From positions 1 to 34,837 of IMG/VR virus record IMGVR_UViG_3300045988_052159: 34,837 nucleotides of DNA; one strand, written 5' to 3'. Position numbers and translations under genes: made by a program. This document shows, in pieces, positions 1 through 26,518 of this stretch (its first letter is position 1; every line of letters begins with the position of its first letter). The notes under the pieces are model-generated. The model was not told where the DNA came from. It worked only from the letters and a program-made list of their open reading frames with translations, and did not search any database. The stretch is from a virus.

Positions 1-3000
1 TTGCTGGCGCGATCACTCGTAACAATCCATTCTCATTCTTTTCTGATATTGAAGAGAGACATACTTTCAATGTTGGCTCTAAGAATGCTATGGAGGTATT
101 TGCGAAAGATAAGCATTCAATCATTGGCCAATGGGGCGGTGACCTTGTGCGTCATGGTTACCAGGTTCGGCTGTTGAAAAATGGCGGTTCAGAAAATGAA
201 TCGCTTTTTATGTACAAAAAAAACCTGTCTAGCTATCAACACAAGACCTCTACAAAATCTTTGAAAACTCGAATCACCTTCAAGACTACTGTCAAAGGTG
301 AGGGAGAAAAGGCGCCTGACCGTAAGTTTTCTGTGGTAGTGGATAGCCCACTCATTAACAAATACAGTCAAATATACGAAGATGTGATTGAGGTTAATGA
401 CGAAGATGTGAAAGATGAGGCGAGCCTGCGAAAATATGGCGAGCAGTATTTCAAGACATCGCTCTGTGACATGATGGAAGATAGCCTTGAACTTGAGGTT
501 GTCGGCCAGAGTGACGTGCCTGTCCAGATGTATGACATTGTGAGCCTGTTTCATGAGGTATACAATCTGGATGTGCGCAAGAAAATCACCAAATACACTT
601 ACTCACCGATGGCTAATAAGCTACTATCTATTGGATTTGGACGATTCAAGTCAGGTTTGTCCAACATGGTTTCTAACGCGGTCAGTGACGCGGTTAAGAA
701 TGAAGCTCAACAACTTCAAGATGATTTTGAAAGGCAGTTAGCAAGAGAACTCAAGAATGCTGATCTTGCATTTGATAGGCAGAAAGAAGAGTTGGTCAAT
801 CAATTCACAGACGGTCTCAATGCTGCCAAAGCCAGAGCCGAAGAAGTCAAGAGACAACTCTCTGACACTATCGACCAGCGCTTTAGCAGTTTTGACAATG
901 GCCCTTTACAAGAGGTGAAGCGCAGAGCTGAAGAAGCCTTGCGAAATGCTGGCGCCAGCAACTTACTTGCTCAAGAAGCGAAGCGGATTGGGTTGGACTC
1001 TGTTGCCAGACTTGAAGAGTTTAAGAGACAGGCTACAAGCGCTCAAACGGCTCTATCGGGTGATTTGGATGCTCTGAAACGGACTATCGCGAACGATATT
1101 CGACCGAAGCAAGAACAGGTTACAGCTGAGATTGCCAATCAAGTTGAAGCACTTGTTCAGACCAAAAAAGAACTGGCTGGTGTGAAGTCAGCGCAAGCGA
1201 CATATGAAGAGACAACGACGCGTAGACTGGCAGAGCTGACCAACTTGGCCAACGGTAAGGCGAGCAAGTCAGAACTCACACAGACAGCCGAGGAACTGGC
1301 GAGTAAGCTGGCTAGTGTGCAGTCTGGTAGTTCACGAAATTACTTCAGGAATTCACGTTCAAGAACGTTCACGACAGGAGATCAAGCGACATACGACTAT
1401 CGAACATTCATCGTTCCTGATTTTTGGAAGAATAATGATAGATTCAAGCGAGATTATGTCCGCTTATCTTTCGACGTGACTTTCCCTGTCGCCCTAGCTA
1501 AAGATATACAAGCCAATGTTTATTTTGGTGCTCATCCGTGGTATGCCTACAGAAACTTAGTCTTTAAAGGCGGAACGACCGAGCGTCAACATTTTGAGTT
1601 CACGATTGACTTATCTAGCTCTTCTGAAACCTATCAGACTAATAATGTATTCATACGTTTTGGGACGAATTACGGCTTTCCAGCTGATTTGCAGGTCGTC
1701 ATTGAGAACGCTATGTTATCGGTCGGCAATTATTTCCCAGCCTATCAACCAGCGTATGAAGACCAGGAAGACCGTGTGTCAGTTGTTGAATCTAACTTCA
1801 GACAGCGCGCTGATTCGCTAGATGCTGGTGTGAGCCGTCTGACTGAAGGTCTCAGAACCAAAGCGGATGTCAGCTCACTCAACGCAACTGCGGAAAATAT
1901 CCGGCAATCTGTGAAGAGTCTTGAGACAGACACGCAGAACAAGCTGAATCAGAAGTTGAGCATGGCTGAGTTTGAGGTGCGAGCAAGCGGAATCCGTCAG
2001 GAAATCCTGAACGCAACCAAGGATAAGGCAGATAAGACTTTAGTTATTACTGAAGCTGGAAAAATCCGTGAGGAATTGACCACTATTCAGACCTATGTCA
2101 ATAAAGATGGTCAGCGACAGGAAGCCCTACAGCGCTATGCTCGTGAGGAAAGCTCAAAACAAGCAATGGCTGTACGTGAACTGGTCACTCGAGACTACGT
2201 TGGTAAGGCAACCCATCAAGAAGATGTGAGAGGTCTTGAACGTAAGTTTGAATCTATCACCAACCCACAAAATGGTTCGATAGCGACTCAGATTGCCAAA
2301 TACAAAACAGCAGTAGATGGCCGATTTGCAGATATCACTTCATTGATTGATGGTAAGGCTAATCAGGCTGATTTTCAGCGAGTTCGAGAAACTAGCCAAC
2401 TCTATGAGCGAATTTTGGGCAATACAGATAATGGAATTGCTGATAATGTCGCTCGCATGGCTTTGACCAATCAGTTATTTCAGGTTGAGGTTGGGAAGTA
2501 TAGTGTCAGTGGCCCTAACCTTATTAAGAATAGTGATTTCAAAAATGGCACGAATGAATGGGCATCTACTCAAAATCTGGGAAGATTGGTTAAGCATGGC
2601 TTTTATCACAATAGTCAGAAAGACCTCATGCGTTTAAGTAATTCGACTCAAAGTGAAAACTTCTTGTATAGTCCTCGTTTTGAACTCGAACGAAACACTG
2701 ATTATGTGCTGAATTTTCGAGGATTTAACAATAGCGCTCTAGTAAGCTATGATGTTTTCATTTTAGGAAGAAAAACAGGCGAGACCAATGGCTTCACAAT
2801 CATAAATCAGGTTATAAAAAGTAAAAAACTATCCACCGCTAAATGTGAAGACGTCTCAATCACATTTAATTCAGGTGAAATGGATAATGCATTCATTCGA
2901 TTCGATAACAATGGCGCACAATCCGGAACTGCTGATTTATACATCACAGAGGTTGATTTGTACAAAGGCTATAAGCCTCGTCCATGGCAACCACATCCAG

Positions 3001-4121
3001 AAGATGCAGTCACAGATGCGAATGCGAAGCTAGAAGCGATTCGTACACAGATGACCTTGCTTCAAGGCTCATGGTCTGTTCAGAATCTAACTAGTGCAGG
3101 TTCGATTGTTTCGCAAATCAATGCGACCAACAATCAAATTCTGATTGAAGCTGAGAAAATTCGGCTGAAAGGTAAGACCTTGCTTGATGAATTGACTGCT
3201 ATTCAAGGTTACTTTAAGCGCTTGTTTGTCGACGAGGGAGCATTTGCTAAGCTGAACGCTGAGATTATTGCTTCAAAAACCATCACAGCAGATAAGCTGG
3301 TCATGGATATGGCCATGGCTCGGATGTTCGTCTCAAGCGATATCTTCACGGATACGCTTGCGGCTAAAGAGGCCTTCATCAACAAGCTTCGGTCAGTCGT
3401 AGTCACGGCGACTTTGCTTGAAGGTTTCAAAGGGCGGATTGGTGGATTCCAGATTGGGACGCATGAGAAAGACTCCTCTGTGTACTGGATAACTGGTCAA
3501 AATCAATTTTCTGTCGGCATGAGCAACGGGTCTGGCCACTGGTCACAGACAGCTTTGTGGGTCAACTGGGGAAACAATTGGGGCTATCCTGGTGACTATG
3601 CTTGGTTCGTTAAACATACAGGTCAAATGTATTGCTATAATCGCGCTGAATTTTGGAATACTCCCATTATTCATGGAGATTTAAAAGTAACCGGTCATAT
3701 TTTCTACAACAATGAGAACTCAGGAAAATCTGGTCATTGGATTCACTCGTCTAAGTACTCAAATTTTGAGCCATCGGATAACTATCTCTATCTTTATTAC
3801 AGTGGTTCAGGTTACGACTGGATTCCGATGAACAAAGAGATTTCAGACCGTCGATATAAGCACAATATCGAAGCTAGTACAGTCTCAGGTCTCGATGTAG
3901 TCAAAAATCTGAAGACGTACAGCTATCTCAAAGAATATGATGGCAAAACCGAGGATATCGCTTGCGGTATTATGGCGCAAGATGTCCAGAAGTACGCTCC
4001 TGAAGCATTTTTTGAAAATCCTGACGGCGCATACTCTTACAACACATTTGCTCTTGTGCCTTATCTTATCAAGGCCATTCAAGAGCTCAATCAAAAAATA
4101 GAAATATTGGAGAAAACATGA
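1..4121 (+). CDS. Tal-like tail-associated/tail-fibre protein, main part; continues from 34501..34837 across the circular junction (joined CDS 4,434 nt, 1,477 aa)
   Basis: The frame is open from nt 3 with no stop before the ATG at 90, and it matches the ORF running off the 3' end. The protein has long coiled-coil stretches and two jelly-roll/CBM-like modules, each ending Y(F/K)P..QP..ED. Its C-terminus carries SDRRYKHNI plus an S74-type intramolecular chaperone domain. Confidence 0.85.
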   Translation, partial: AGAITRNNPFSFFSDIEERHTFNVGSKNAMEVFAKDKHSIIGQWGGDLVRHGYQVRLLKNGGSENESLFMYKKNLSSYQHKTSTKSLKTRITFKTTVKGEGEKAPDRKFSVVVDSPLINKYSQIYEDVIEVNDEDVKDEASLRKYGEQYFKTSLCDMMEDSLELEVVGQSDVPVQMYDIVSLFHEVYNLDVRKKITKYTYSPMANKLLSIGFGRFKSGLSNMVSNAVSDAVKNEAQQLQDDFERQLARELKNADLAFDRQKEELVNQFTDGLNAAKARAEEVKRQLSDTIDQRFSSFDNGPLQEVKRRAEEALRNAGASNLLAQEAKRIGLDSVARLEEFKRQATSAQTALSGDLDALKRTIANDIRPKQEQVTAEIANQVEALVQTKKELAGVKSAQATYEETTTRRLAELTNLANGKASKSELTQTAEELASKLASVQSGSSRNYFRNSRSRTFTTGDQATYDYRTFIVPDFWKNNDRFKRDYVRLSFDVTFPVALAKDIQANVYFGAHPWYAYRNLVFKGGTTERQHFEFTIDLSSSSETYQTNNVFIRFGTNYGFPADLQVVIENAMLSVGNYFPAYQPAYEDQEDRVSVVESNFRQRADSLDAGVSRLTEGLRTKADVSSLNATAENIRQSVKSLETDTQNKLNQKLSMAEFEVRASGIRQEILNATKDKADKTLVITEAGKIREELTTIQTYVNKDGQRQEALQRYAREESSKQAMAVRELVTRDYVGKATHQEDVRGLERKFESITNPQNGSIATQIAKYKTAVDGRFADITSLIDGKANQADFQRVRETSQLYERILGNTDNGIADNVARMALTNQLFQVEVGKYSVSGPNLIKNSDFKNGTNEWASTQNLGRLVKHGFYHNSQKDLMRLSNSTQSENFLYSPRFELERNTDYVLNFRGFNNSALVSYDVFILGRKTGETNGFTIINQVIKSKKLSTAKCEDVSITFNSGEMDNAFIRFDNNGAQSGTADLYITEVDLYKGYKPRPWQPHPEDAVTDANAKLEAIRTQMTLLQGSWSVQNLTSAGSIVSQINATNNQILIEAEKIRLKGKTLLDELTAIQGYFKRLFVDEGAFAKLNAEIIASKTITADKLVMDMAMARMFVSSDIFTDTLAAKEAFINKLRSVVVTATLLEGFKGRIGGFQIGTHEKDSSVYWITGQNQFSVGMSNGSGHWSQTALWVNWGNNWGYPGDYAWFVKHTGQMYCYNRAEFWNTPIIHGDLKVTGHIFYNNENSGKSGHWIHSSKYSNFEPSDNYLYLYYSGSGYDWIPMNKEISDRRYKHNIEASTVSGLDVVKNLKTYSYLKEYDGKTEDIACGIMAQDVQKYAPEAFFENPDGAYSYNTFALVPYLIKAIQELNQKIEILEKT

Positions 4122-19996: not shown

Positions 19997-20138
19997 CTCT
20001 ATCATCAACGTTGACAGCGTGAAGCGTAGCATCACAATTGAAGGAGTTGAGTTTGGTTCAGATTGTAGCGCTCTGGTATCTAAGAATAAAGACGGAACAG
20101 GGACAATTACTCTGATATTTGAAGGAAAAGTTATTTGA
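19974..20138 (+). CDS. Small hypothetical protein (54 aa)
   Basis: The ATG overlaps the preceding gene; hand-translated as MRIKTSNDSIINVDSVKRSITIEGVEFGSDCSALVSKNKDGTGTITLIFEGKVI. Confidence 0.4.
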   Translation: MRIKTSNDSIINVDSVKRSITIEGVEFGSDCSALVSKNKDGTGTITLIFEGKVI

Positions 20139-20157
20139 AATAGAAACGAGGTGAGCG

Positions 20158-20583
20158 ATGCCCTTCTTTCCTGACATAAACGAAGCCAAAACAAAAGAAA
20201 ATGCCAAGAGAATTTTAAAAGGCTACCCTAGATGGCGTCGTGTGGCAAATGACACTGATGGGCAGAGAGTGACTACTACATATTCATTCATGCCTCGAAA
20301 TCCATCAATCGGGAGAGATAGTCAAGTTGAAAAGTTGGCTATACGAAAAGTCGATGCAGAGATTGAACTTGATGCAATCGAGCAAGCTGTCAGTGGATTA
20401 CATGATCCTTTATACCGTAGGATACTTTTCGAGAAATATCTTCAGTGGGATTGTAAGAAGGATGAATCAATTTCAATGGAATTATCTCTTTCAGAAAGCT
20501 CATACTATGACATCTTGGATAAGGCTCTGATGGCATTCGCAGAGTTGTATCGAAATGGTGAACAGATTGAAATTTTGGAGTAA
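20158..20583 (+). CDS. arpU: ArpU-family late-gene transcriptional regulator (141 aa)
   Basis: The N-terminus (MPFFPDINEAKTKENAKRILKGYPRWRRVAN) and the C-terminal sigma region-4-like segment are characteristic. It is the last gene before the packaging region. Confidence 0.8.
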   Translation: MPFFPDINEAKTKENAKRILKGYPRWRRVANDTDGQRVTTTYSFMPRNPSIGRDSQVEKLAIRKVDAEIELDAIEQAVSGLHDPLYRRILFEKYLQWDCKKDESISMELSLSESSYYDILDKALMAFAELYRNGEQIEILE

Positions 20584-20636
20584 ACTTGGAGTTTTTTTGG
20601 AGTAAATTTGGAGAAAGTTCGGAGTAAATATATAAT
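20575..20636 (+). promoter_or_regulatory. Five 11-bp-phased direct repeats (consensus TTGGAGTAAAT) merging into a promoter: TTGGAG, 17 nt, TATAAT
   Basis: Repeat units start at 20575, 20586, 20597, 20608 and 20619. The fourth unit sits at the -35 position, 17 nt from TATAAT (20631-20636). The first unit overlaps the arpU stop codon. Confidence 0.6.
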
Positions 20637-20670
20637 TTTGTGTGCTAAAATTATATTATGAAATATTTGT

Positions 20671-20698
20671 AAAAGGCAGGCACACCCTGCCTTTTCTT
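20671..20698. terminator. Bidirectional-type intrinsic terminator
   Basis: The perfect 10-bp stem aaaaggcagg/cctgcctttt has the loop cacac, with a T-run after it and an A-run before it. Confidence 0.75.
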
Positions 20699-20717
20699 GT
20701 GAATTGGAGGTGATGTT

Positions 20718-21299
20718 GTGAAAAAAGTTGATCCAATTCGAGAAGTCGATGACATCGAACGCATGAAAGATTATCTACGTTCTAAAAGCGAGCGTAACTA
20801 TATACTGATAATGTGTGGCTTGTACTCTGGATTGAGAATTAGCGACATCATTCCACTTCAAGTCAAGCATGTTCTTGGCGATCACATTGATATCTACGAA
20901 AAAAAGACAAGAAAAAGAAAAAGATTTCCTATAAATGACCAGCTAAGAAAGGCACTGGATGAGTATATCAGAGAAAATGATTTAAAAAGCTACGATTTCC
21001 TTTTTCCAAGTCGAAAGAAAAAACGGTCAAAATCTGGCAATATGCCAGGTGCAAGAATCCATCATATAAGTAGAGAAGCAGCTTATATGATATTCAAAGA
21101 TGCTGCTTTGCATATTGGTCTTAAAAAAATTGGAACGCATTCAATGCGCAAGACTTTTGGATATCATTTTTATAAACGAGAAGGAAATCTGGTCATGTTG
21201 ATGAAAATATTTAATCATTCAACACAGCGACAAACGCTCGATTATATTGGATACGAGCAGGATGAGATAGATGATGTGATGCTTAAATTTAAGTATTAA
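20718..21299 (+). CDS. Small tyrosine recombinase, catalytic domain only (193 aa)
   Basis: The start is GTG after the RBS ggaggtg. The catalytic pattern is GLRISD (Arg), HSMRKTF (His-x-x-Arg), FNHS (His) and TLDYIGY (Tyr). There is no N-terminal arm-binding or core-binding domain. Confidence 0.8.
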   Translation: MKKVDPIREVDDIERMKDYLRSKSERNYILIMCGLYSGLRISDIIPLQVKHVLGDHIDIYEKKTRKRKRFPINDQLRKALDEYIRENDLKSYDFLFPSRKKKRSKSGNMPGARIHHISREAAYMIFKDAALHIGLKKIGTHSMRKTFGYHFYKREGNLVMLMKIFNHSTQRQTLDYIGYEQDEIDDVMLKFKY

Positions 21300-21306
21300 A
21301 TCATCT

Positions 21307-21427
21307 TATATTTAACATATTGAGAATTTGGAAATTCAATTTTTAAAAAATAATGCTGAACCCTTGAAGAATCTGACTCTAGGGATATTTGATTGAATTT
21401 AACAGAATATAAGATATGTTAAATATA
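21307..21427. repeat. Nested inverted repeats immediately downstream of the small recombinase
   Basis: The outer pair is 14/14 bp: tatatttaacatat (21307-21320) with atatgttaaatata (21414-21427). The inner pair is 9/9 bp: aaattcaat (21332-21340) with attgaattt (21392-21400). The centre is 51 nt. Confidence 0.8.
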
Positions 21428-21513
21428 CGAGAGTGTTAGAGACTGAAAAAACTCCCCCCTACATCATAAAAATTTAGCCCCCCTACCTACTAAAAAGAAA
21501 GGACCCTCCCTAG

Positions 21514-21858
21514 ATGAATACCCCAAAGGACAGACCGGACCGGAGTGGTCCTCACCGAGTTGCTTTTGAAAAGAATAAAAATATTATTCTCAAAACAAAA
21601 AATACTTGTGGGATTTGTGGACTCCCCGTCGATAAATCATTGAAGTACCCACATCCTCTATCTCCGGTCATTGACCATGTTATTCCAATCAATCGCAATG
21701 GTCATCCGTCAGACATTCGTAACTTACAGCTTGCCCATTGGCAATGCAATAGACAGAAGTCTGACAAGCTTTACGCTGATTATAAATCAGCAAGTAGTAC
21801 TGTTGTTGGTAACAGGAACTTGCCACAATCAAGAGATTGGACAAAGTACAGAGCTTGA
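21514..21858 (+). CDS. HNH endonuclease (114 aa)
   Basis: The motif is CGICGLPVD...DHVIPINRNGHPSDIRNLQLAHWQCNRQKSDK. The gene lies next to the packaging and portal genes. Confidence 0.9.
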   Translation: MNTPKDRPDRSGPHRVAFEKNKNIILKTKNTCGICGLPVDKSLKYPHPLSPVIDHVIPINRNGHPSDIRNLQLAHWQCNRQKSDKLYADYKSASSTVVGNRNLPQSRDWTKYRA

Positions 21859-21954
21859 AGAAGCCAAAAAAGAAAAATTATATTATTTTTTAAAAATGTC
21901 AAAAATAATTTTGAATACTTAGATCTTGAAAAAATAACAGATGTGTGAAGTAAG

Positions 21955-22037
21955 TCCTAGCTTAGTATAGGGGGGTATCCCCCTCCCACTAGGCGCTCGC
22001 GAGCTTCACGCCGTCACTGTACATTTTTTCTCGCGCC
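21955..22037. other. GC-rich palindromic island upstream of the portal gene; candidate cos/packaging recognition site or structured RNA
   Basis: A nested hairpin runs from cctag (21956-60) to ctagg (21989-93) and encloses ggggg-tat-ccccc (21971-83). A perfect 10-bp palindrome gctcgcgagc lies at 21995-22004. ctcgcgcc recurs at 22030-22037. Confidence 0.45.
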
Positions 22038-22064
22038 AAATCATCACAATGAAAGGAGAACGGT

Positions 22065-23333
22065 TTGGAATTAAGAGGAATTGACTATCTCAGGAGGAAG
22101 TTGAATCTCTATCGGAGTAGAGTCAATCTGAGATACAAGCATTATGCGATGCAGCACTATGAAGCACCTACAGGAATCACAATTCCTGCACATGTCAGGG
22201 TGAAGTATCAAGCCGTTCTTGGTTGGGCTGCAAAGGGCGTTGATAGTCTTGCAGATCGTTTGATTTTCAGGGAATTTGCTAACGATGATTTTAATGTTAC
22301 AGAAATCTTTAATCGGAACAATCCTGACATTTTTTTTGATAGTGCTATTTTAGCTGCGTTGATTGGTTCATGTAGTTTCGTCTACATTTCGAAGGGTGAA
22401 GATGATGAGGTGAGGTTACAAGTCATTGAATCAAGCAACGCGACTGGTGTCATTGACCCTATAACAGGCTTGCTTGTGGAAGGGTATGCGGTGTTGGCTC
22501 GTGATGATTACAATCGTCCAACGCTTGAAGCCTACTTCGAGCCCAATGCTACTCACTTCATTCCAAAGGATGGGGAGCCTTACTCGGTTACGAATGAGAC
22601 GGGTATTCCTTTGCTGGTTCCGGTCATTCATCGTCCTGATGCGGTCCGTCCGTTTGGTCGATCTCGTATTACTAGGGCAGGGATGTATCATCAAAAATAT
22701 GCGAAGCGTACTTTAGAGCGAGCTGACATCACTGCTGAATTCTATTCGTGGCCACAAAAATATATTATTGGATTAGATCCTGATGCAGAGCAATTGGAAA
22801 CTTATAAAGCCACTGTATCAAGTTTATTGACAATTTCTGCTAGTGATAGTGGAGAAAAACCAAGTATTGGTCAATTTACTACCGCTAGCATGTCACCTTT
22901 TACAGAACAGCTCAGAACTGCCGCTGCTGGATTTGCTGGGGAAATGGGCTTGACATTGGATGATTTGGGATTTGTGTCTGACAATCCATCATCTGTGGAA
23001 GCTATCAAGGCTAGTCATGAGAATCTTCGTCTTGCTGGTCGGAAGGCTCAGAGGTCGCTGGGAGCTGGATTGCTAAATGTGGCTTATGTTGCTGCTTGTT
23101 TGAGGGATGATTTTCATTATGCGAGAAGCCAATTTGTGAGAACCATAGTCAAGTGGGAACCATTGTTTGAAGCGGATGCGAATACGATGACCATGATTGG
23201 TGACGGTGTTGCGAAATTGAATCAGGCCTTACCTGGCTACATCAATGCGGAGACAATTCGTGATCTTACTGGTATCTCTGGAGACATGTCTGCTAGGCCA
23301 GTGATAAGCGAGGGTGGTTCAAATGGAGAATGA
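22065..23333 (+). CDS. Portal protein, SPP1 gp6-like (422 aa)
   Basis: The TTG start lies 6 nt after the RBS aaaggag. Size and sequence pattern (RPFGRSRITRAG, SSVEAIKASHENL) fit, and it is followed by a MuF-type gene. Confidence 0.8.
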   Translation: MELRGIDYLRRKLNLYRSRVNLRYKHYAMQHYEAPTGITIPAHVRVKYQAVLGWAAKGVDSLADRLIFREFANDDFNVTEIFNRNNPDIFFDSAILAALIGSCSFVYISKGEDDEVRLQVIESSNATGVIDPITGLLVEGYAVLARDDYNRPTLEAYFEPNATHFIPKDGEPYSVTNETGIPLLVPVIHRPDAVRPFGRSRITRAGMYHQKYAKRTLERADITAEFYSWPQKYIIGLDPDAEQLETYKATVSSLLTISASDSGEKPSIGQFTTASMSPFTEQLRTAAAGFAGEMGLTLDDLGFVSDNPSSVEAIKASHENLRLAGRKAQRSLGAGLLNVAYVAACLRDDFHYARSQFVRTIVKWEPLFEADANTMTMIGDGVAKLNQALPGYINAETIRDLTGISGDMSARPVISEGGSNGE

Positions 23334-25105: not shown

Positions 25106-26518
25106 ATGGCGAGGAAGAAACTTGGCAATCAGAATCCTACTCAATCGGTGATTTTAAAATACGTCAAGAAGAATTCAAAAGCTAAAGATGCGATTGAACT
25201 TTACGAGCGGACTGGTCTTTCTTGCTATGCTTGGCAGAAGAATCTTTTGCTGCCTTTGATGGCTGTTGATAAGAACGGTCTTTGGGTGCATCAGAAGTTT
25301 GGTTACTCTATTCCTCGACGAAACGGAAAGACTGAAATCTTATATATCGGTGAAATTTGGGGGCTACATGAAGGATTGAATATCCTGCATACTTCTCACA
25401 GGATTTCTACCTCTCATGCCTCTTTTGAAAAGGTCAAACGATACCTTGAAAAAATGGGGTATGTTGATGGTGAGGATTTCAATTCTATTCGAGCGAAGGG
25501 GCAGGAGAGAATCGAGCTATACTCAACAGGTGGTGTTATCCAATTTCGTACTAGGACATCAAATGGTGGTCTTGGTGAAGGGTTCGACATGCTGATCATT
25601 GACGAGGCTCAGGAGTACACGACTGAGCAAGAATCTGCTTTGAAGTACACGGTTACGGATAGTGAGAATCCTATCACAATCATGTGTGGGACACCTCCGA
25701 CCCCTGTATCGAGTGGTACGGTCTTTACGAAGTACCGTGAGACTTGTCTTTTCGGGAAAGGGAAGTATTCTGGATGGGCTGAGTGGTCGGTTTCCGATGA
25801 AAAGGAAATCGACGATGTGGAAGCCTGGTATAATTCTAATCCGTCTATGGGCTACCACTTGAATGAGCGTAAGATTGAGGCTGAGCTTGGTGAGGATAAG
25901 CTGGACCATAATATCCAACGTTTGGGATTTTGGCCAACCTATAACCAAAAATCTGCCATTTCTGAAACGGAGTGGAATGAGCTCAAAGTGGATGATGTAC
26001 CAGAATTGTTTGGCAAGCTTTCTGTTGGTATTAAGTACGGCCAAGACGGAACGAACGTGGCATTGAGTATTGCTGCACGGACTAAGGATGGCCGTTTCTT
26101 TGTGGAAACAGTTGATTGTCAATCTGTTCGTAATGGGAATGAGTGGATGGTTGCCTTTTTGCGTCAAGCTGACGTGGCTCAAATTGTCATAGATGGCGCA
26201 AGTGGTCAAAAGATCCTGGACGAAGAGTTGAAGGACTACAGAATCAAGAATGTGATTCTACCAACGGTGAAGGAAATCATCGTAGCCAATGCTCTTTGGG
26301 AGCAGGGGATTTATCAGAAGACCATCTGTCACGCTGGTCAACCATCATTGTCCAAAGTAGCTACTAACTGCGATAAGCGGAATATTGGTTCAAATGGTGG
26401 TTTTGGCTATCGATCGCACTTTGACGATATGGATATTTCTTTGATGGATAGTGCTTTGCTTGCGCACTGGGCTTGTGCTACGACCAAGCCTAAGAAAAAG
26501 CAAAAAATCAGTTATTAA
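25106..26518 (+). CDS. terL: Terminase large subunit (470 aa)
   Basis: The Walker A-like motif is IPRRNGKTE and Walker B is FDMLIIDEAQE. The coupling motif is IMCGTPP. The C-terminal half is nuclease-like. Confidence 0.85.
   Translation: MARKKLGNQNPTQSVILKYVKKNSKAKDAIELYERTGLSCYAWQKNLLLPLMAVDKNGLWVHQKFGYSIPRRNGKTEILYIGEIWGLHEGLNILHTSHRISTSHASFEKVKRYLEKMGYVDGEDFNSIRAKGQERIELYSTGGVIQFRTRTSNGGLGEGFDMLIIDEAQEYTTEQESALKYTVTDSENPITIMCGTPPTPVSSGTVFTKYRETCLFGKGKYSGWAEWSVSDEKEIDDVEAWYNSNPSMGYHLNERKIEAELGEDKLDHNIQRLGFWPTYNQKSAISETEWNELKVDDVPELFGKLSVGIKYGQDGTNVALSIAARTKDGRFFVETVDCQSVRNGNEWMVAFLRQADVAQIVIDGASGQKILDEELKDYRIKNVILPTVKEIIVANALWEQGIYQKTICHAGQPSLSKVATNCDKRNIGSNGGFGYRSHFDDMDISLMDSALLAHWACATTKPKKKQKISY

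Follow-up and report, generated by a model that had tools for sequence, protein, structure and literature searches.

A minimal tyrosine recombinase gene and a conserved two-part DNA element at the early/late boundary of an SM1-like Streptococcus phage and its relatives

Several described systems associate a tyrosine recombinase with a short site. XerS/difSL of streptococci and lactococci and XerH/difH of Helicobacter each combine one tyrosine recombinase with an imperfect palindrome of roughly 28–32 bp, and the XerS and XerH genes adjoin their sites; Xer/dif dimer resolution is usually activated by FtsK. In TnpI/IRS of Tn4430 and in res-type sites, a core dyad adjoining the gene is accompanied by accessory half-sites within ~120 bp, and a core with accessory repeats of the Tn4430 IRS type imposes resolution selectivity. 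Cre of phage P1 acts at loxP, a single site per genome with an asymmetric spacer, and serves cyclisation and dimer resolution between copies. FimB/FimE–fimS and the Bacteroides invertons are defined by two orientations; their recombinases are very small and have no separate DNA-binding domain, and the gene lies just 5' of short inverted repeats and structural genes. Exchange by tyrosine recombinases usually requires matching site centres.

The locus analysed here lies in a window of 34,837 nt (the whole stretch of viral DNA studied) which is an SM1-like Streptococcus cos phage. Like the XerS and XerH systems, it has one tyrosine recombinase (gene rec) and a palindromic site of similar size, but rec is devoid of an N-terminal core-binding domain and scores far below every Xer cut-off; moreover it is phage-borne, is placed with a late-gene activator, has an extra upstream site (site I below) and has no FtsK-like partner encoded in the window or its replication module. 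The putative core-plus-accessory arrangement resembles that of Tn4430, except that the element is 3' of the gene, that the accessory site, too, forms a dyad, with another centre, and that the carrier is a cos phage, not a transposon or plasmid; judged by its sequence, it is a candidate resolution site. Cre is likewise a phage tyrosine recombinase with one asymmetric site per genome, but its N-terminal domain is complete and it works without an accessory site, and P1 is a plasmid prophage with headful packaging whereas the rec phage has cos ends and integrates via a separate 360-aa integrase, also encoded in the window. Recombinase size and gene position are shared with FimB/FimE–fimS and the Bacteroides invertons; unlike these, the rec element was found in one orientation and showed no internal plus-strand promoter in a consensus scan. 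The features of the region are as follows.

20158–20583, plus strand: ArpU-family late-gene activator, directly preceding rec
20573–20651, plus strand: putative ArpU boxes and late promoter (direct repeats, promoter scan)
20671–20700, plus strand: intrinsic-terminator-like hairpin, AAAAGGCAGG/CCTGCCTTTT with a T run, 3' of the promoter-like sequence and 5' of rec
20718–21299, plus strand: rec, small tyrosine recombinase, 193 aa, catalytic domain only (Pfam, PHROG, AF2, homologue alignment)
21307–21340 (about), plus strand: site I, TATATTTAACATATTGAGAATTTGGAAATTCAAT, comprising the left arm of the outer repeat and a TGAGAA...GnAAAT motif; conserved in relatives
21341–21394, no strand assigned: variable spacer separating sites I and II; its CCCTTG / CACTTG motif is weakly conserved
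21395–21426, plus strand: site II, candidate core site; arm GAATTTAAC, centre AGAATATAAGATAT, arm GTTAAATAT
21427–21513, plus strand: conserved right flank, ATACGAG and a C-rich leader (CCCCCCTAC twice, then CCCTCCC), ending at the HNH start codon
21514–21858, plus strand: HNH endonuclease of the packaging module, first gene 3' of the element
22005–22017, plus strand: cos site TTCACGCCGTCAC, identical to the cos annotated in SM1 and phiLC3
22065–23333: portal
25106–26518: TerL

The coordinates of arpU, HNH, portal and TerL bear out the position assigned to rec by the sequence-only reading, between arpU and the packaging genes. The arpU product matches NCBIfam TIGR01637 (121 bits, cut-off 43) and PHROG 248, transcriptional activator; the HNH gene matches Pfam HNH (E 6e-11) and PHROG 338. 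ArpU, RinA and LtrC require three 7-nt direct repeats just 3' of their own gene (PMC3753634). Five TTGGAGT-type direct repeats are present at 20573–20630, together with a promoter-like TGGAGA-16-TATAAT at 20609–20636 (promoter scan) and then TGTGCTAAAAT at 20641–20651; we infer from their sequence that these may be the ArpU boxes and the late promoter. The hairpin that follows (DNA fold −10.5 kcal/mol, z = −4.6) completes a promoter-then-terminator layout which was likewise observed in phiLC3, L090 and SpSL1. The element itself was considered as cos or cosB, and this was rejected because cos lies past HNH, about 580 nt downstream of site II. A PADLOC search found nothing.

The rec ORF begins with GTG and is preceded by a GGAGG ribosome-binding site. 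Its sole domain is Pfam Phage_integrase (PF00589; residues 11–177, E 1e-22, 81 bits for a cut-off of 27), it matches PHROG 216, and AF2 models it as one domain (pLDDT 91). R40, E61, K63/K66, H141-x-x-R144, H167 and Y176 do not vary among 29 diverse homologues (46–70% identity). By PF00589 score, catalytic residues and fold, rec is thus a member of the tyrosine recombinase superfamily, and the proposal of a small recombinase reduced to its catalytic domain stands, with one domain and every catalytic residue present; on this sequence evidence it is probably catalytically active. The model matches IntI4, XerA, XerH and Cre with probability 1.0. The nearest solved relatives are XerA, XerD, XerH and IntI4; the last is the top structural match, with the likeness confined to the catalytic domain, which is most like the Xer and IntI groups. 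Assignment to a described family is another matter: only the C-terminal halves of the Xer profiles align, with scores below the cut-offs for XerA (52 bits, cut-off 220), XerD (49.5, 330), XerC (35, 335) and XerS (33, 267), and the same holds for the scores against the integron integrase TIGR02249 (35 bits, cut-off 265) and the FimB/FimE-type invertase NCBIfam NF007371 (25.7 bits, cut-off 222).

The rec family comprises 840 proteins at E ≤ 1e-5 and was found in 206 phage records, with carriers among Streptococcus, Bacillus, Listeria, Clostridia and Paenibacillus phages. All the annotated examples that were retrieved have the gene directly 3' of a late-gene activator (ArpU, sigma-like or Alt-like); this synteny is found in SM1, OlisA2, MissG1, IPP45, 315.1, BtCS33, phiCD146 and a Listeria phage, and the two genes overlap by 4 nt in BtCS33, a Listeria phage and a satellite. 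The 'second integrase' annotated after an ArpU or sigma-like gene in phIS3501, BtCS33, SM1 (gp32), 315.1, pneumophages and C. difficile phages occupies the same place and belongs to the rec family. Its role was called unclear in one paper (PMC3335513) and it was taken to be an integration enzyme in another (PMC3359378); earlier work on it is annotation of the gene alone. Literature searches retrieved no characterised function or motif for rec or its site, and no conserved bipartite site beside rec was found in the searchable literature. Two relatives, phiLC3 and L630, possess neither rec nor the element. The activator-HNH-cos-portal order of phiLC3 is the same, and L630 has a 90% identical ArpU and retains TTGGAGT-type boxes.

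The element begins 7 nt past the rec stop codon. It had been described from the sequence as nested perfect inverted repeats, and all the coordinates were confirmed: the outer repeat pairs TATATTTAACATAT (21307–21320) with ATATGTTAAATATA (21414–21427) at 14/14 positions and can be extended to 17 nt with one mismatch, and the inner repeat pairs AAATTCAAT (21332–21340) with ATTGAATTT (21392–21400) at 9/9 and encloses a 51-nt core. The outer repeat is the sole perfect inverted repeat of at least 14 nt with a gap of at most 150 nt in the 34.8-kb window; by chance (first-order Markov simulations) such repeats occur at a mean of 0.05 per window and are present in 3% of simulations. Whether homologues are followed by similar repeats has a two-sided answer. 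The inner repeat is mostly unpaired and not conserved in relatives, and the left arm of the outer repeat carries three uncompensated mismatches to the invariant right arm in about half of 159 variants; a nested long hairpin was rejected on these grounds. What is conserved near rec is a two-part DNA element.

Its first part, site I, is conserved in 72 unique relatives and has equivalents in Clostridia, phi105 and B. cereus phages. Conservation of the spacer columns is low (0.7–0.83), and the spacers form discrete families that go along with the rec allele. Site II consists of a 9-nt arm, a 14-nt asymmetric centre and a 9-nt arm. Its inner 28-mer (21397–21424) has a per-column conservation of at least 98% and is 100% identical in 80 out of 85 loci, retrieved via sequence or protein similarity; 4 of the remaining 5 end before the site. 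The centre recurs about 123–149 nt past rec in 115 of 152 diverse loci, where it is flanked by lineage-specific palindromic arms. The arms are mostly palindromic (GAATTTAAC/GTTAAATTC, GAGTTAAAC/GTTTAACTC, CAGTTACAC/GGGTAACTC), the left arm of one Streptococcus lineage (AAGTCAC) being non-palindromic. They do not simply track overall rec similarity, since they differ between recs that are 82–84% identical and yet are common to recs that are 47% identical. The ATTTAAC arm is found with three unrelated activator families and, therefore, the arms are not activator boxes. Each of the two sites is a dyad conserved across lineages; both contain ATTTAACATAT (plus strand, 21310; minus strand, 21414), their central sequences are different and their spacing of ~106 bp corresponds to ten helical turns. 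There is one full site per genome: the window contains no second full site and no attC-like cassette array.

In Streptococcus loci holding the conserved block and enough upstream DNA, rec lies 100–105 nt upstream with few exceptions (L116, L265 and a few loci where the apparent distance is larger). L265 has the block and a rec-like gene as a 3' tail only. L116 is an apparent assembly chimera, with Neisseria-like DNA joined near site I, and was treated as an artefact. In all flanked loci, rec is upstream, HNH is downstream and the block is on the same strand. The gene, site I and the spacer assort together, with breaks in linkage immediately 5' of rec and within the element at site II: pairwise distances for site I correlate with those for rec at 0.88 and with those for the HNH side at 0.53, the drop occurring across site II, and the 21427–21513 flank travels with the HNH module. 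We propose from this pattern that site I may be an accessory binding site linked to the rec allele. Linkage of arpU is 0.48–0.63 with HNH/portal and 0.41–0.55 with rec. The element is always immediately 5' of the late genes, even when 1–4 kb of extra genes follow rec. Many lineages have a terminator right after rec, which implies that late transcription there starts at or after the element, and in SpSL1 the element is followed by a separate unit of boxes, promoter and terminator. This variable placement relative to promoters and terminators points to a role at the DNA rather than the RNA level.

Comparison of the site II 28-mer with known dif sequences (as given in PMC3025954) gave 19/28 matches to B. 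subtilis dif and 18–19/28 to E. coli dif, the top score among ~70,000 window positions. Its layout is that of a dif-type core (~28 bp, inverted arms, short centre). The match extends to 10 of the 11 positions of the right-hand 11-mer of E. coli dif (TTATGTTAAAT), which we take to be the XerD-binding arm. Of the three functions suggested by the sequence-only reading (invertible switch, dif/cer-like site, plain RNA hairpin), a dif/cer-like site is the best fit, although what is established is a resemblance in sequence. A second dif-like match (20639–20666, 19/28), which would place a rec cassette between two sites, was judged a coincidence because it overlaps the −10-like sequence, is not conserved in relatives and is impossible where rec overlaps the activator. 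The ATTTAAC/GTTAAAT arms fit the attC consensus RYYYAAC/GTTRRRY; the fit is limited to the Streptococcus lineage and the site is single, without an array, and an integron attC was rejected as an explanation.

The reading that we favour, tentatively and at rather less than even confidence, is that of a self-contained recombination module, composed of a mini-Xer-like enzyme, an accessory site and a dif-like core, which acts between genome copies. Here rec would be an active minimal tyrosine recombinase and the inverted-repeat DNA 3' of its gene the two-part target. Site I would be an accessory, allele-specific binding site and site II the dif-like core, on whose 9-nt arms two protomers would sit and cut within AGAATATAAGATAT. 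The reaction would be a conservative exchange between copies of site II on different or multimeric phage genomes; given one full core per genome and different centres in the two sites, no intramolecular inversion or deletion is expected. Multimers would thereby be resolved or interconverted, and related phages might occasionally exchange DNA. Since the rec gene accompanies that of the late activator, often with translational coupling, the reaction would occur around the early-to-late transition. Several points count against such a module. Recombination products were not observed, the window lacks a gene for an FtsK-like partner and the left arm of site II is non-palindromic in one lineage. It is not obvious why a cos phage packaging concatemers should need its multimers resolved, and the linkage breaks at a short invariant block could be explained by ordinary homologous recombination. 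Finally, the location of the element at the head of the late operon, with rec following the activator, fits regulation at least as well.

That regulation might take the form of a complex of rec, produced along with the late activator, on sites I and II which shapes or loops the DNA and controls late transcription or read-through, catalysis being secondary (e.g. local nicking and closing). We consider this unlikely, though it is the main rival: rec directly follows ArpU, sigma-like and Alt-like activators, with the 4-nt overlap in some cases, the element keeps its place just 5' of the late genes even when 1–4 kb from rec, many lineages have the terminator after rec, and two dyads with unlike centres, between which no recombination is expected, resemble operator pairs. 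However, the catalytic residues, including the nucleophile Tyr, are invariant across a deep family, which is unexpected for a pure DNA binder. Ltr proteins were the only phage factor required at the late promoters tested in reporter assays (PMC3753634), and rec-less relatives express their late genes with the same activator design. The SM1-type activator boxes and promoter upstream of rec and the SpSL1 unit downstream of the element also imply that the element is not itself an activator-dependent promoter; an ArpU-dependent late promoter within it was rejected, as the boxes and promoter 5' of rec persist in a rec-less relative, SpSL1 has its separate unit and the same arms occur with three activator families. 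A more doubtful alternative is that site II serves as a 'public' crossover shared by many phages, at which rec promotes the swapping of whole early or late modules, of rec cassettes or of accessory genes when phages are co-resident; that rec, made as late growth begins, and the near-universal site II form a dedicated engine of mosaicism at the early/late boundary of phages and satellites of one host group is, in our estimation, just as doubtful. Such exchange would account for the identity of the site II centre and right arm in prophages of S. pneumoniae, S. mitis, S. oralis, S. infantis, S. cristatus, S. suis and S. timonensis, the flanks of which differ by 20–30%, and for identical left sides joined to different right flanks that switch just past TGTTAAATA. 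The fall in correlation across site II, the better linkage of arpU to HNH/portal than to rec and the clusters of variable genes that flank the element to left and right in B. cereus phages agree with it too. Against this, any short invariant block yields apparent mosaic junctions and is equally usable by homologous recombination, many loci were retrieved by the exact 28-mer (an ascertainment bias), another inverted repeat borders the inserts of the B. cereus phages, and there is no attC-like array or second site in the window.

The two remaining explanations are considerably less probable. A structured RNA in the late leader, i.e. a hairpin with a conserved loop acting independently of rec as a processing, stabilising or antitermination signal, is very improbable. 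The folding of the repeat region and that of the site II hairpin alone are both stronger than in shuffled sequences (z = −3.3 for each), covarying arms around a conserved 14-nt 'loop' are a structured-RNA pattern, and in the window the element would lie inside a rec-HNH transcript; but an Rfam search gave no relevant match even at E ≤ 5, the mismatches that recur (A.G, G.G and C.A) are not of the wobble type, changes involving the right arm are uncompensated, and one lineage has lost the site II pairing and kept the sequence. The inner repeat is unconserved, the element of SpSL1 and of the Bacillus type lies behind a terminator or 5' of a separate promoter and hence is not consistently in a late leader, and the strict co-occurrence with rec is left unexplained. 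The plain RNA hairpin is thus disfavoured by its non-wobble mismatches, lost palindrome and varying placement. Least probable of all, and close to untenable, is the invertible switch of fim or Bacteroides type that the sequence-only reading had preferred, in which rec would flip 21321–21413 between the 14-nt repeats and so gate the late or packaging genes. A perfect 14/14 repeat does adjoin the gene for a roughly 200-aa recombinase (FimB and FimE are similarly small) upstream of structural genes, and the protein does match the NCBIfam tyrosine-type DNA invertase, though weakly. However, the pattern of the inverted state had 0 matches in viral, metagenome and genome collections, as against 83, 104 and 32 for the normal state, these counts being from assemblies, which report the majority state only. 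No inverted or deleted variants of the element were present among the assembled loci, and every flanked locus has the single orientation. About half of the variants have the imperfect left arm, the differing site centres argue against exchange between sites I and II, and a consensus scan (sigma-70-type) of 21300–21513 revealed no convincing plus-strand promoter.

Temperate phages that carry rec, which is routinely annotated as an integrase, number in the hundreds; their hosts are streptococci, bacilli, listeriae and clostridia, and well-studied examples are SM1, 315.1, pneumophages, phi105, BtCS33 and C. difficile phages. The present analysis shows that rec travels with a deeply conserved two-part site at the early/late boundary and that, in the assemblies, this arrangement gives no sign of being an inversion switch. 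Three hypotheses can now be tested: late site-specific recombination between copies of the genome, regulation of the late operon, and programmed exchange of modules. The pair has practical interest too, the recombinase being very small (about 190 aa) and the site roughly 32 bp long. Any one of the three hypotheses, if true, would be a new step in the life cycle of phages of Gram-positive bacteria.

The window comes from a temperate Streptococcus (mitis-group) cos siphophage, to which SM1, OlisA2 and Javan330 are 78–83% identical across 20100–22100. The small recombinase gene (rec), apart from which a canonical 360-aa integrase is encoded elsewhere in the window, has the following surroundings:

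20158–20583, ArpU-family late activator (TIGR01637)
20573–20651, five TTGGAGT-type direct repeats and promoter-like sequences
20671–20700, strong terminator-like hairpin
20718–21299 (+), rec, a 193-aa ORF
21307–21427, repeat element
21446–21513, C-rich leader between the element and HNH
21514–21858, HNH
22005–22017, cos, TTCACGCCGTCAC, the same as the annotated cos of SM1 and phiLC3
downstream of cos, portal, then MuF-like protein and TerL

The five TTGGAGT-type copies, spaced by ~11 nt, lie just past the arpU stop codon (region 20573–20700) and are followed by the promoter-like TGGAGA-16-TATAAT and TGTGCTAAAAT and then by the terminator hairpin right before rec. This promoter-then-terminator leader, which recurs in phiLC3, L090 and SpSL1, hints at late transcription that needs terminator read-through or antitermination. 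The C-rich leader upstream of HNH, kept in SM1-like relatives, contains CCCCCCTAC twice and then CCCTCCC beside the ribosome-binding site.

The coordinates and counts reported for rec and the repeats in the sequence-only reading were all correct on recheck, as was the description of rec as catalytic-domain-only: its sole content is a Phage_integrase catalytic domain (residues 11–177). Residues R40, E61, K63/K66, H141, R144, H167 and Y176 do not vary in 29 homologues (46–70% identity). The AF2 model is confident (pLDDT 91) and superposes on IntI4, XerA, XerH, Cre and lambda Int; the nearest sequences are those of XerA and XerD, and against curated families each score was well under the family cut-off. 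At E<=1e-5 the rec family comprises 840 proteins, and three different queries returned 569, 135 and 499 viral loci. Homologues occur in 206 phage records from Streptococcus, Bacillus, Listeria and Clostridium/Clostridioides (phi105, BtCS33 and 315.1 among them) and additionally in Paenibacillus genomes. In all annotated examples examined, rec is the gene immediately 3' of the late-gene activator, be it ArpU, sigma-like or phi31 Tac/Alt-like, and the two overlap by 4 nt in BtCS33, a Listeria phage and a satellite. No explanation of the gene's role was found in the literature: the BtCS33 paper took it simply as the integrase (PMC3359378), and its early versus late expression is ambiguous in SpSL1 RNA-seq (PMC6755750). 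The Streptococcus satellite phages Javan556/557 (S. suis, ~10 kb) carry a rec homologue (46% identity) at the extreme end of the satellite as annotated; in the Javan556 annotation (L179) a small ORF upstream overlaps the start of this gene.

Within the repeat element, conservation is concentrated in the left-arm region and in site II (21395–21426), where 9-nt arms enclose a 14-nt asymmetric centre. The 28-mer ATTTAACAGAATATAAGATATGTTAAAT (21397–21424) was identical in 80 of 85 loci gathered through sequence or protein similarity, the site itself not being used as query; it lies ~101 nt past the rec stop codon, and the rec proteins there are just 60–68% identical to that of the window. The other five are four contigs ending before the site and MissG1, with four left-arm substitutions. 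The left-arm region TATTTAACA (part of site I, ~21307–21340) is conserved too in this set; the interval 21320–21396 is not. The same plan is found in Clostridia, Paenibacillus-type, phi105, Listeria and B. cereus-group phages. Across lineages, site I consists of a dyad with a GAGAAAnTGnAAAT-like motif after it, and 80–100 bp beyond it stands site II, with lineage-specific, mostly palindromic 9-nt arms and a nearly universal asymmetric centre, A(C/G)AATAT(T)AAGATAT. The site II core was found in 115 of 152 non-redundant diverse loci, usually 123–149 nt after rec. Retrieval through ArpU, the fairest picture within Streptococcus (70 loci), gave rec in 69, with the exact 28-mer in 50 and absent from 19; two examined of these 19, like MissG1, have a variant site II with a non-palindromic left arm (AAGTCAC) and the usual centre, right arm and site I. 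The 14/14 inverted repeat is the sole one of its kind in the window; ~3% of Markov simulations contained one.

The suggestion of a dif-like site gained ground, as regards sequence likeness. The 28-mer shares 19/28 positions with B. subtilis dif and 18–19/28 with E. coli dif, the top dif scores among ~70,000 window positions, and agrees at 10/11 positions with the XerD-binding arm of E. coli dif, its right-hand 11-mer. Both reference dif sequences were confirmed in PMC3025954. No second site II-like sequence was found in the window. A stretch upstream of rec in direct orientation (20639–20666, TGTGTGCTAAAATTATATTATGAAATAT) equals site II as the best window match to E. coli dif (19/28) and was judged a coincidence because of its overlap with a promoter-like -10 sequence and its lack of conservation as a site. 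In some B. cereus-group phages (L508, L528, L546, L559, L483, L489) a second core-like site, CTAATGTAAC-AAAATATATGATGT-GTTACATTAG, whose 10-nt arms are perfect and whose 14-nt centre is related, lies 1.3–3.4 kb downstream of site II on the opposite strand, inverted to it; it might act as a partner for recombination or be a hairpin in its own right.

The proposed fim/Bacteroides-type switch was not borne out. An inverted-state-specific pattern had no match in viral, metagenome or genome collections and the normal-state sequence had 83, 104 and 32, respectively, in assemblies, which show the majority state only. Wherever a locus had sufficient flanking DNA, rec lay upstream and HNH downstream, both on the strand of the block, and no deletion from the left arm to site II was seen among the loci compared. 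In roughly half of 159 Streptococcus variants, three positions of the outer stem fail to match, uncompensated by the invariant right arm; in this set 5/9 inner-stem positions are mostly unpaired. In tyrosine recombinases, differing central sequences usually prevent exchange between sites; the centres of sites I and II differ (TGAGAA... versus TATAAG...), which argues against exchange between them. Inversion is therefore scarcely credible. Slightly less remote, and still very improbable, is an RNA structure such as the plain hairpin first considered: an Rfam search of the element gave no match, and the arm mismatches (A.G, G.G, C.A) are not wobble pairs and lack compensation. The place of the element in transcription units also varies between lineages, with a terminator immediately 3' of rec in many Bacillus-type phages and 1–4 kb of extra genes between rec and an otherwise intact element in some B. 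cereus phages, which argues for a role at the DNA level. In L508, L546, L559, L568, L570, L576 and similar B. cereus-group loci, these inserts are bounded by ~27-nt imperfect inverted repeats (TAGGGGTATCGCAGCATTTTGG ... CAAAATGCTGGTGGTATCCCTA), enter exactly 5' of site I and vary in gene content; the unit has the look of a self-contained cassette or mobile insert.

Comparison of loci ties the element to rec rather than to the activator, cos or an RNA. phiLC3 is laid out in the same way (activator, promoter, terminator, HNH, cos, portal) and has neither rec nor the element. Both are likewise missing from L630, whose ArpU is 90% identical and whose TTGGAGT boxes and promoter are the same. The arm ATTTAAC is seen alongside three unrelated activator families. 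ArpU-type activators use short direct repeats just past their own gene (PMC3753634), a pattern that the TTGGAGT repeats 5' of rec match. In SpSL1 the box-promoter-terminator unit flanks rec and the element on both sides; the duplicated unit (CTTGTCAAAAAAAG.ATAG.ATTGACAAAA..., L184 1480–1600 and 2300–2420) comprises activator boxes, promoter and terminator, as if the rec cassette, on insertion, had carried in a copy of this late control region. In place of rec and the element, L630 (IMGVR_UViG_3300045988_000683, 1865–3077) has >2 kb without a plus-strand ORF continuing the gene array, the ORFs listed there looking spurious; this stretch contains a GOLLD RNA (273 bits against Rfam RF02032), with a giant non-coding RNA apparently sitting under the late promoter.

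In 133 unique SM1-like loci, many retrieved through the exact 28-mer, pairwise-distance correlations were high within arpU (0.81–0.93), rec plus site I plus spacer (0.72–0.88), HNH (0.69–0.79) and portal (0.85–0.91). They fall in the stretch immediately before rec and at site II (from 0.88 to 0.53), and arpU is linked more closely to HNH and portal (0.48–0.63) than to rec (0.41–0.55). Rec, site I and spacer thus behave like a cassette open to exchange, with conserved sequence at its borders, a pattern compatible with site-specific exchange; homologous recombination at the invariant block would look identical. A dedicated module-exchange function of rec and site II seems improbable. The rec alleles are distinct (193-aa window type versus 188-aa SM1 types, 60–68% identity), diverge more than the flanking ArpU (78–96%) and HNH (87–100%), and each goes with its own site I and spacer family. 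In one metagenome contig (L116, IMGVR_UViG_3300006301_000088) the phage sequence is fused, at or near site I, to GC-rich DNA resembling that of Neisseria, and several others (L134, L171, L158, L135, L123) begin or end within ~110 nt of the block; most likely these are assembly breaks or chimeras at a repeat common to many co-occurring phages.

Taken together, there is good support for the element as the cis-acting DNA target of rec, in which site I would be accessory and site II a dif-like core, and against an invertible switch. A rec–DNA complex might instead control the late operon, as the strict placement of rec with the late activator and of the element at the head of that operon would suggest, and we consider this rather unlikely. 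The invariant catalytic residues, the anatomy of the core site and the presence of a single asymmetric site favour, tentatively, a recombination reaction: rec would carry out conservative exchange between copies of site II on separate or multimeric phage genomes, timed at the early-to-late transition.
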